DNA of 64,000 nt from IMG/VR virus record IMGVR_UViG_2721755651_000007; one strand, given 5' to 3'. The translations under genes and the position numbers were made by a program. This DNA is from a virus. Taxonomy: Duplodnaviria > Heunggongvirae > Uroviricota > Caudoviricetes. The notes under the pieces were generated by a model, which was not told the origin of the DNA, did not search any database, and worked only from the letters and a program-made list of their open reading frames with translations. Of the stretch, positions 53,978 to 55,154 are shown piece after piece. Positions within the stretch are counted from its first letter, which is position 1, and the number at the start of each line of letters is the position of its first letter.

Positions 53978-54736
53978 TCAAGTGCCTTTCCTGGTCCAGC
54001 CATATTTTTTGAATGCAGGCGCCGCTTCATCGGTTTGTAGCCATTCTGCAAATCGACGGGTTTCATCATTTGCATCCTGACGTACTGTAATGTTCATATC
54101 ACGCCATATCACGTAGTCTGGCGCTATTTCCACGACATCACCAATTTCTGGATTACTGGCTGCCCAGTCAGCCCAGGTTATCCAGACATCTGCTCCAGGC
54201 TGATTCTCAAGAGCCTTACGTGCAGTTCCGCTATTGGGCGCATATAAAATAATATTTTTTCGGATTGCGGCGACAGTTTCTATATTCCCTTTACGTCCGG
54301 CAATATCTTCCCAGACGCCAGTGCCTGATGTATTACTGGTACCACCACCATCATTAACAATTACGCCAATCCCAGGTCTGGTCAGGTCGTCAATACTCCG
54401 GATATTTTTAGGATTACCTTTCTTTACCAGTAAAATACTTTTTCGCAGATAAAGAGGCTGAATATCTTTTTCACTGAAGCTGTCTTTATGGTCCCGAATG
54501 ATAGCCAGAGCAGATTGTTCTGATGCGCCAAACAAGATATCTGCATTTTTTTTGGCATCTTCATTCCATTTGTTCTGTGGGCCGTAATGAACGTTCACTA
54601 TAATACCTGTTTTTTCGGCATAAAGTTTGGCTGCATCAAGCAAGGCTGTATGCGGGCCACCAGGACCATACAGATTGATATCAGCATAAGCAGCAGAAGA
54701 CAGGAATATTAAAAAACCTGCCATTATGTTCCTCAT
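53978..54736 (-). CDS. secreted periplasmic solute-binding-like protein (type 2 PBP fold, ModA-like architecture)
   Basis: signal peptide MAGFLIFLSSAAYA; two-lobe length and motifs reminiscent of ModA-type binding proteins; no adjacent permease or ATPase. Confidence 0.45.
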   Translation of the reverse strand: MRNIMAGFLIFLSSAAYADINLYGPGGPHTALLDAAKLYAEKTGIIVNVHYGPQNKWNEDAKKNADILFGASEQSALAIIRDHKDSFSEKDIQPLYLRKSILLVKKGNPKNIRSIDDLTRPGIGVIVNDGGGTSNTSGTGVWEDIAGRKGNIETVAAIRKNIILYAPNSGTARKALENQPGADVWITWADWAASNPEIGDVVEIAPDYVIWRDMNITVRQDANDETRRFAEWLQTDEAAPAFKKYGWTRKGT

Positions 54737-55154
54737 AAAAAACTCCTTTTATTGGTTATCATGAAATAAAGTTATAAACACTACAAATAATATATATTAC
54801 ATCCAGATAAACTTATCCGACTTTACCTCGTGCATAGCTTGTTATTTAAAGTCAACAAAATAAGGAAAATTATACGCATATTGAAGAGTATAAACCTTAC
54901 ATGTTGATTACATTTTTGTAATCAACATCCTGTTTGGAATAGCCAGCCTTTAATGGATAACTATTTCTGACAATGCAATGAGTATAATCAAGTCCATCTT
55001 CCACTGAGAATTAGAGGCGGCATGCTTTTTCCGGCTCTTGCCGGATATCCGTAATTGTCCATAATCTGCAGATTTATACCTTCTGCATGACCTGTCAGCG
55101 AAAATTTGTCCGGTGTTTCTACGGGAATGACATCAAAAGTTACACGCACTCGCG

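Follow-up and report, generated by a model that had tools for sequence, protein, structure and literature searches.

AcfC of V. cholerae and PEB3 of C. jejuni are the closest described relatives of the protein considered here, Paa, and the literature on the three conflicts, with Paa and PEB3 being termed adhesins and AcfC being regarded as a chemotaxis-related periplasmic protein. AcfC was found in the periplasm on fractionation, bound heparin, chondroitin sulfate, and mucin in ELISA, and was needed for mucin chemotaxis, but did not act as an adhesin in tests with Caco-2 or HT-29MTX cells (PMC5976639). Its gene lies in an operon of the TCP island, downstream of the chemoreceptor-like gene acfB (PMC5976639). 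PEB3 is also periplasmic (PMC5976639), and its gene, which phospho-BumR represses, has been described as encoding a component of a 3-phosphoglycerate transporter and is required to colonize chicks (PMC12469816). The solved structures of AcfC and PEB3 contain D-aspartate, L-phospholactate, and other small anions.

Paa, or AdfO, has likewise been studied in E. coli. A review of O islands states that an adfO mutant of O157:H7 showed less adherence to HeLa cells and fewer secreted proteins, and that Paa is implicated in colonization of the pig ileum (PMC8565820). The same review places adfO (z2053) on OI-57, always together with ckf (z2054), a hok-type gene (PMC8565820). In EDL933, paa was found by RNA-seq to be induced in the contents of the bovine rumen and rectum, and the "AcfC" of this strain and porcine EPEC Paa are stated to be identical proteins (PMC8524897). 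The gene considered here, described below, is this same Paa/AdfO of porcine EPEC and EHEC O157:H7, with no difference at the gene level.

The DNA analyzed in this study, hereafter the window, is a stretch of 64,000 nucleotides. An open reading frame with an ATG start, encoding 252 amino acids, occupies 53978..54736 on the minus strand, exactly as an earlier note on this DNA had it. The ORF was 100% identical at the DNA level to RefSeq paa (WP_001449026.1, "AcfC family adhesin Paa"). In a megablast search of complete E. coli genomes, the surrounding 53300..55800 matched many O157:H7 chromosomes with 100% identity across the full 2.5 kb, in which the annotated order is hokD, paa, a fimbrial protein pseudogene, a hypothetical protein, and a DUF1627 protein. 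On a larger scale, 40000..64000 was a 100% match to O157:H7-type strains such as 319 (NZ_CP018241.1) and 644-PT8. Strain PV15-279 was not collinear with the window before 48 kb, and its replication gene carries IS1203; the window lacks this splitting element. Judged by sequence identity, the ORF is paa (adfO, z2053; OI-57/prophage CP-933O of EDL933), a known prophage cargo gene of O157:H7 and other attaching-effacing E. coli. The description of the ORF in the earlier note as an orphan binding protein was sound, but the note had missed its identity with paa/adfO, an adherence and colonization factor that has been named and investigated by experiment; since the ORF is this described gene, the observation is correct without being new. 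The gene is also in use as a marker of risk in Shiga-toxin-producing E. coli, and the structures of its homologs have been solved.

The paa gene alone was present in 611 of 5426 complete E. coli genomes, at 582 chromosomal and 36 plasmid places, and the whole 2.5-kb arrangement was kept in 573 genomes. Of 613 paa records, 564 were at least 99% identical. The gene is also annotated in GenBank prophage records of O145:H28, and it was 100% DNA-identical, with the same hok (ckf) neighbor, in RefSeq-annotated O157:H7, O145:H28, O55:H7, O121, and O111 genomes. At the protein level, the representative of the 90%-identity cluster in the protein database differed by one residue (V141A). The plasmid alleles, which are 86-92% identical and reside on IncF plasmids, several of them from pigs, are annotated only as "substrate-binding domain-containing protein". 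A search of NCBIfam with Paa gave solely sub-threshold matches, to sulfate and molybdate binding proteins, and the RefSeq name is therefore not derived from a model in that collection. Among the PHROGs, Paa belongs to PHROG 11834, a family without a function label.

In the prophage, paa is situated in the nin-like region of a lambdoid element, having replication genes on one side and DUF968, RusA, and DUF1133 genes on the other. Related phages and the sister prophage in the window have no paa between the DUF1627-associated gene and hok. The GC content of paa was 43.9% versus 51.7% for the window, and paa is a cargo (moron) gene in the sense of an extra gene of deviant base composition between conserved phage genes. 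The window as a whole (1..64000) holds two tandem lambdoid prophages; IS66, IS256, and IS1203 elements, nleG effector genes, and a number of frameshifted structural genes lie between the two. The cargo gene right beside the sister prophage's own hok (4641..4985, minus strand) is a different one, which also encodes a signal peptide and belongs to the YgiW/YdeI stress-protein family. The DNA around hok looks like a cargo hotspot.

To the left of the inserted DNA lies a hok/sok type I toxin-antitoxin locus with its upstream DNA (53487..53872, minus strand), hokD being the ckf of the OI-57 literature. The hokD coding sequence (53487..53642), 335 bp downstream of paa, matched Pfam HOK_GEF (1.7e-21), and 53640..53789 gave a full match to Rfam sok (103.9 bits), in keeping with the position next to hok given in the earlier note. 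Homology to the hok loci of other phages and plasmids extended to about 53820-53880. Within the DNA that accompanies the hok loci of some plasmids, a 24-nt perfect palindrome, CCGATATGGGAATTCCCATATCGG, was present at 53835..53858 and was unique in the window. Just downstream of hok, 53397..53478 (minus strand) showed a weak match to an isrK-like RNA (24.9 bits versus a gathering score of 50), which is probably not significant. The right junction is marked by 55435..55599 (minus strand; PHROG 30109, 6.3e-17), where 54 codons remain as the stump of a prophage gene encoding a DNA-binding protein. The stump aligned with the initial two thirds of its 89-aa counterpart in the sister prophage (window 8309..8578, minus strand), and homology stopped at about 55430. 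When the junctions were set at the points where the homologies end, the insert was found to span about 53874..55430. A search with the concatenated flanks for an empty site retrieved no phage record in which both flanks are joined directly.

Upstream of paa, 54737..54928 (minus strand) forms an AT-rich 5' region, presumably the promoter and leader, whose GC content of 25.5%, against 51.7% for the window, was below that of every other 192-bp stretch in the 64 kb. It contains a Shine-Dalgarno sequence, AAAGGAG, 7 nt ahead of the ATG and a perfect TATAAT at 54874..54869; a consensus scan found no full sigma-70 match in the leader, and Rfam contained no known RNA matching it. A promoter of its own is presumed within 54737..54928, and paa would probably be transcribed from it in the lysogen. 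The 5' border of the unit, 54901..54928, harbors a perfect 12+12 inverted repeat, ATGTTGATTACA-N4-TGTAATCAACAT, which could be an operator or a recombination border. The leader is conserved with the IncF plasmid alleles up to this repeat and unrelated beyond it, and three contexts diverge just past the repeat; its core, ATTACAAAAATGTAAT, is kept in the plasmid alleles, whose upstream DNA is otherwise unrelated. On the 3' side, a terminator scan showed two hairpins in the tail of the unit (53918..53977, minus strand); the first (53971..53958) precedes a T-run and resembles an intrinsic terminator. This tail is conserved in the plasmid alleles up to 53918. The segment common to the prophage and the IncF plasmid alleles is thus 53918..54940, and these shared borders define a self-contained mobile unit of about 1 kb comprising the 190-bp AT-rich leader, the ORF, and the two hairpins. 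The border motifs were not found around more distant members of the family, and the 1-kb unit is specific to the E. coli alleles.

Both neighbors of this unit within the insert are remnants. Abutting its 3' end, 53874..53922 (minus strand) corresponds to the end of a Tn3-family transposon, namely a 38-bp terminal inverted repeat with about 10 nt of the interior (the 3' end of tnpA), and matched at about 92% a terminal sequence of approximately 50 nt that numerous plasmids carry at their Tn3-family transposase genes. It also aligned with the terminal repeats of Tn21, Tn1721, and Tn501. The outer end of this repeat falls exactly where the similarity to the plasmid paa alleles stops, and the rest of the transposon is gone. 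On the other side is a decayed pixH/sfpH-like minor pilin gene (54897..55430, minus strand), annotated in RefSeq as a fimbrial protein pseudogene with a frameshift and an internal stop. Its portion 54938..55402 was 85.8% identical in DNA to pixH of plasmid pEB2 from ETEC B7A and about 73% identical to sfpH; both ends of the copy are missing, and 10-nt and 5-nt deletions and a CAG-to-TAG change were noted. The truncated neighboring genes of the earlier note are hence this pseudogene and the 54-codon stump, and its AT-rich stretch (54740..55150) divides in two: the first ~190 bp are indeed intergenic and very AT-rich, but the part from 54938 on is the 3' part of the pilin pseudogene. Read from these homologies, the ~1.6-kb insert is pieced together from plasmid-type DNA, namely the decayed pixH-like pilin gene, the 1-kb paa unit, and the Tn3-family terminal repeat remnant, as a mosaic that replaced part of the phage nin-like region.

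The N-terminus of Paa, MRNIMAGFLIFLSSAAYA|DINLY, comprises one basic residue, a hydrophobic core, and A-x-A ahead of the predicted cut. By inspection and homology, residues 1-18 were predicted to be a Sec signal peptide with an n-h-c layout ending in AYA|D; the crystallized mature PEB3 chain (2hxw) begins at the equivalent of D19, which bears out the signal peptide proposed earlier. Low pLDDT was confined to these 18 residues in the AlphaFold2 model, which was built from 38 homologs and had a mean pLDDT of 92.3 with an alternating strand/helix two-lobe pattern. The sequence of Paa contains no cysteine, and Paa is therefore not a lipoprotein. Pfam and sequence inspection revealed no lipobox, membrane anchor, beta-barrel, or passenger domain in it.

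Residues 20-247 of Paa matched Pfam SBP_bac_11 (E 5.5e-34; 118.3 bits versus a cut-off of 25). Among PDB sequences, phmmer retrieved PEB3 (E 1.2e-81) and AcfC (E 3.5e-81), the alignments covering residues 11-248 and 16-248 of Paa, respectively; the sulfate-binding proteins reached only about 1e-4 in the same search. As compared by Foldseek, the Paa model superimposed on 4jb7 (AcfC with D-aspartate) with a target-normalized TM of 0.97 (rmsd 1.2 Å, identity 52%) and on 3fj7 (PEB3 with L-phospholactate) with a target-normalized TM of 0.96 (rmsd 1.4 Å, identity 52%), and the other PEB3 entries gave target-normalized TM values of 0.96 (2hxw_A) and 0.95 (2hxw_B, 3fir). The next-best folds were ModA proteins, at a target-normalized TM of about 0.72-0.77, with rmsd 3.5-4.6 Å and identity 11-19%, so that the ModA-type resemblance suggested in the earlier note was right at the level of the fold. 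ModA and the sulfate-binding proteins (TM about 0.55-0.61 for the latter; 12-19% identity) share the class II fold with Paa. In view of its full-length similarity, its size of ~250 aa, and its signal peptide, SBP_bac_11 fold, and motif, Paa is a member of the AcfC/PEB3/Paa family, and it is a soluble protein of the class II two-lobe binding-protein fold after Sec export.

Across 114 full-length homologs, the most distant of which were 49-55% identical to Paa, 55 positions were at least 97% conserved. They include S134-N-T-S-G-T-G140, W142-E-D, N168-S-G, and W185-x-T-W-x-D-W191; the motif S-N-T-S-G-T-G-x-W-E-D plus N-S-G plus W-x-T-W-x-D-W is present in full in Paa and invariant or nearly so in both the set of 114 and the 38 homologs of the model. 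Judged from their position, these residues would contact the ligand in the cleft between the lobes.

Paa and AcfC agree in length, signal-peptide layout, and cleft motif, and both are carried on mobile virulence elements. The two differ in their genetic setting, paa standing alone in a lambdoid prophage whereas acfC follows acfB in its operon (PMC5976639), and in their reported activity, in that AcfC was shown not to be an adhesin (PMC5976639) whereas Paa is reported to promote adherence (PMC8565820). PEB3 (2hxw, 3fj7, 3fjg, 3fir) is 52-53% identical to Paa, with TM values of 0.95-0.96, and shares the SNTSGTG motif. Unlike Paa, which has D-S-F-S-E at that place and no sequon, PEB3 is N-glycosylated at a D-F-N-V-S sequon. 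In addition, K135 of PEB3, which is mutated in entry 3fir, is replaced by T133 in Paa and by V in AcfC, and the specificity of Paa may consequently differ. The peb3 gene is chromosomal and repressed by BumR (PMC12469816), whereas paa is prophage-borne.

Regarding a possible transporter partner, the RefSeq annotation of an identical O157:H7 strain, for which identity to the window was direct over 40000..64000 and collinearity over 1..40000 was spot-checked, showed no gene for an ABC permease or ATPase anywhere in the 64 kb. The earlier claim that the binding protein has no transporter partner thus holds, and paa was not found to belong to a housekeeping transporter operon, a placement that the note had set against its own proposal. 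Eight other genomic contexts of the family likewise contained no dedicated permease or ATPase, and in seven of the eight none was adjacent. The family gene stands alone in Campylobacter, Helicobacter, and Francisella, and in Edwardsiella it is alone beside traT. It lies in IS-rich, plasmid-like DNA in Salmonella, in the TCP island after a ToxT-like regulator gene in V. cholerae, between gpA and ogr as cargo of a P2-like prophage in Aeromonas, and about 690 bp after an ABC operon having its own binding protein in Enterobacter. These eight contexts indicate that being unpartnered is a property of the family rather than of this copy.

Two of these contexts deserve separate description. On an Aeromonas metagenome contig (L010, 6001..6774), the P2-like prophage carries the AcfC/Paa-family gene as a single-gene cargo, flanked by the replication gene gpA and by ogr; the product of this cargo gene was 54% identical to Paa in a multiple alignment and 56% by BLASTP. 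On a V. cholerae contig (L012, 6001..6750), an AcfC-family gene whose product is 53% identical to Paa follows the ToxT-like regulator gene and one unannotated gene, in contrast to the solitary paa; type IV pilus assembly genes lie further upstream, a TagA-like mucinase gene is nearby, and the layout is unlike the acfB-acfC operon reported from O1 El Tor.

Taken together, we favor, with a probability of roughly 0.6, the reading that Paa binds anions as a soluble exported protein and influences adherence either indirectly or by binding anionic host glycans after release; it is preferred because the sequence lacks an anchor and the cleft motif is invariant. The primary literature and the RefSeq name instead call Paa an adhesin. 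As a true surface adhesin, it might reach the surface, e.g., via the type II secretion system of pO157, bind the host epithelium, and initiate attaching-effacing adherence. The lowered HeLa adherence of the adfO mutant and the role in the pig ileum, as summarized in the O-island review (PMC8565820), are in line with this, as is the ELISA binding of AcfC to heparin, chondroitin sulfate, and mucin (PMC5976639). Nevertheless, no anchor, lipobox, beta-barrel, or passenger domain is present in the sequence, AcfC is periplasmic and mediates no cell adhesion, PEB3 is periplasmic as well (PMC5976639), and conservation is strongest in the small-ligand cleft motif, not in surface patches. We therefore consider this explanation rather unlikely, and we do not think that Paa works as an anchored adhesin.

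The modeled fold, being of the ModA/sulfate-binding type, would also suit a binding component serving an importer with membrane subunits encoded at another chromosomal site, which corresponds to the nutrient-scavenger idea of the earlier note. A weak form of that idea is conceivable given the description of PEB3 as a 3-phosphoglycerate transporter component (PMC12469816), but no permease was found beside any examined family member: unlike the ModA and sulfate ABC importers, Paa has no adjacent permease or ATPase genes, the one nearby operon, that of Enterobacter, is served by its own binding protein, and paa moves alone on prophages and plasmids. Moreover, against the curated families of transporter binding proteins, the best NCBIfam scores of Paa were 17.7-22.6 bits, far below the cut-offs of 62.5-470. 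An importer role is accordingly improbable. As prophage cargo beside a toxin-antitoxin locus, paa might further be thought to protect the lysogen by blocking a phage receptor or excluding superinfecting phages, the other proposal of the note; the exclusion genes known from lambdoid phages are cargo as well. Known receptor blockers, Cor and Llp among them, however, carry a lipoprotein signal, which the cysteine-free Paa cannot have, and no membrane anchor is present either; Paa gave no PADLOC match (E up to 0.01), its PHROG carries no label for function, and its close relatives are located on chromosomes, on plasmids, and in the TCP island, settings for which phage exclusion does not readily suggest itself as the selective force. 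This proposal thus found no support, and we regard it as highly implausible.

In the favored reading of Paa as a soluble anion-binding protein, Paa would be exported and then stay soluble, either in the periplasm or released. The cleft between its lobes would close on a small anionic ligand, phosphorylated, sulfated, or carboxylated, by analogy with PEB3 and AcfC. Since Paa has no permease of its own, it would act through host partners or by glycan binding after release: adherence and gut colonization may be promoted indirectly via host-encoded partners such as a chemoreceptor or a transporter, or, alternatively, released Paa may bind anionic host glycans.

For a gene already characterized to this extent, the analysis of its flanks, with the plasmid-type mosaic, the Tn3-family end, and the pixH-like remnant, contributes modestly. 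The remains of the pilin gene and of the transposon end show that the prophage acquired a ready-made 1-kb unit from plasmid-type DNA, and the insert provides a small, clear example of virulence cargo moving between plasmids and phages. As a more speculative and rather doubtful extension, the AcfC/PEB3/Paa proteins may be stand-alone "plug-in" sensors that move alone on unrelated mobile elements, namely the lambdoid prophage here, the P2-like prophage of Aeromonas, IncF plasmids, and the TCP island, and that dock to conserved host chemoreceptors or transporters, steering the bacterium to mucus-derived sulfated or phosphorylated metabolites. If this were true, the "adhesin" phenotype would be an indirect consequence.
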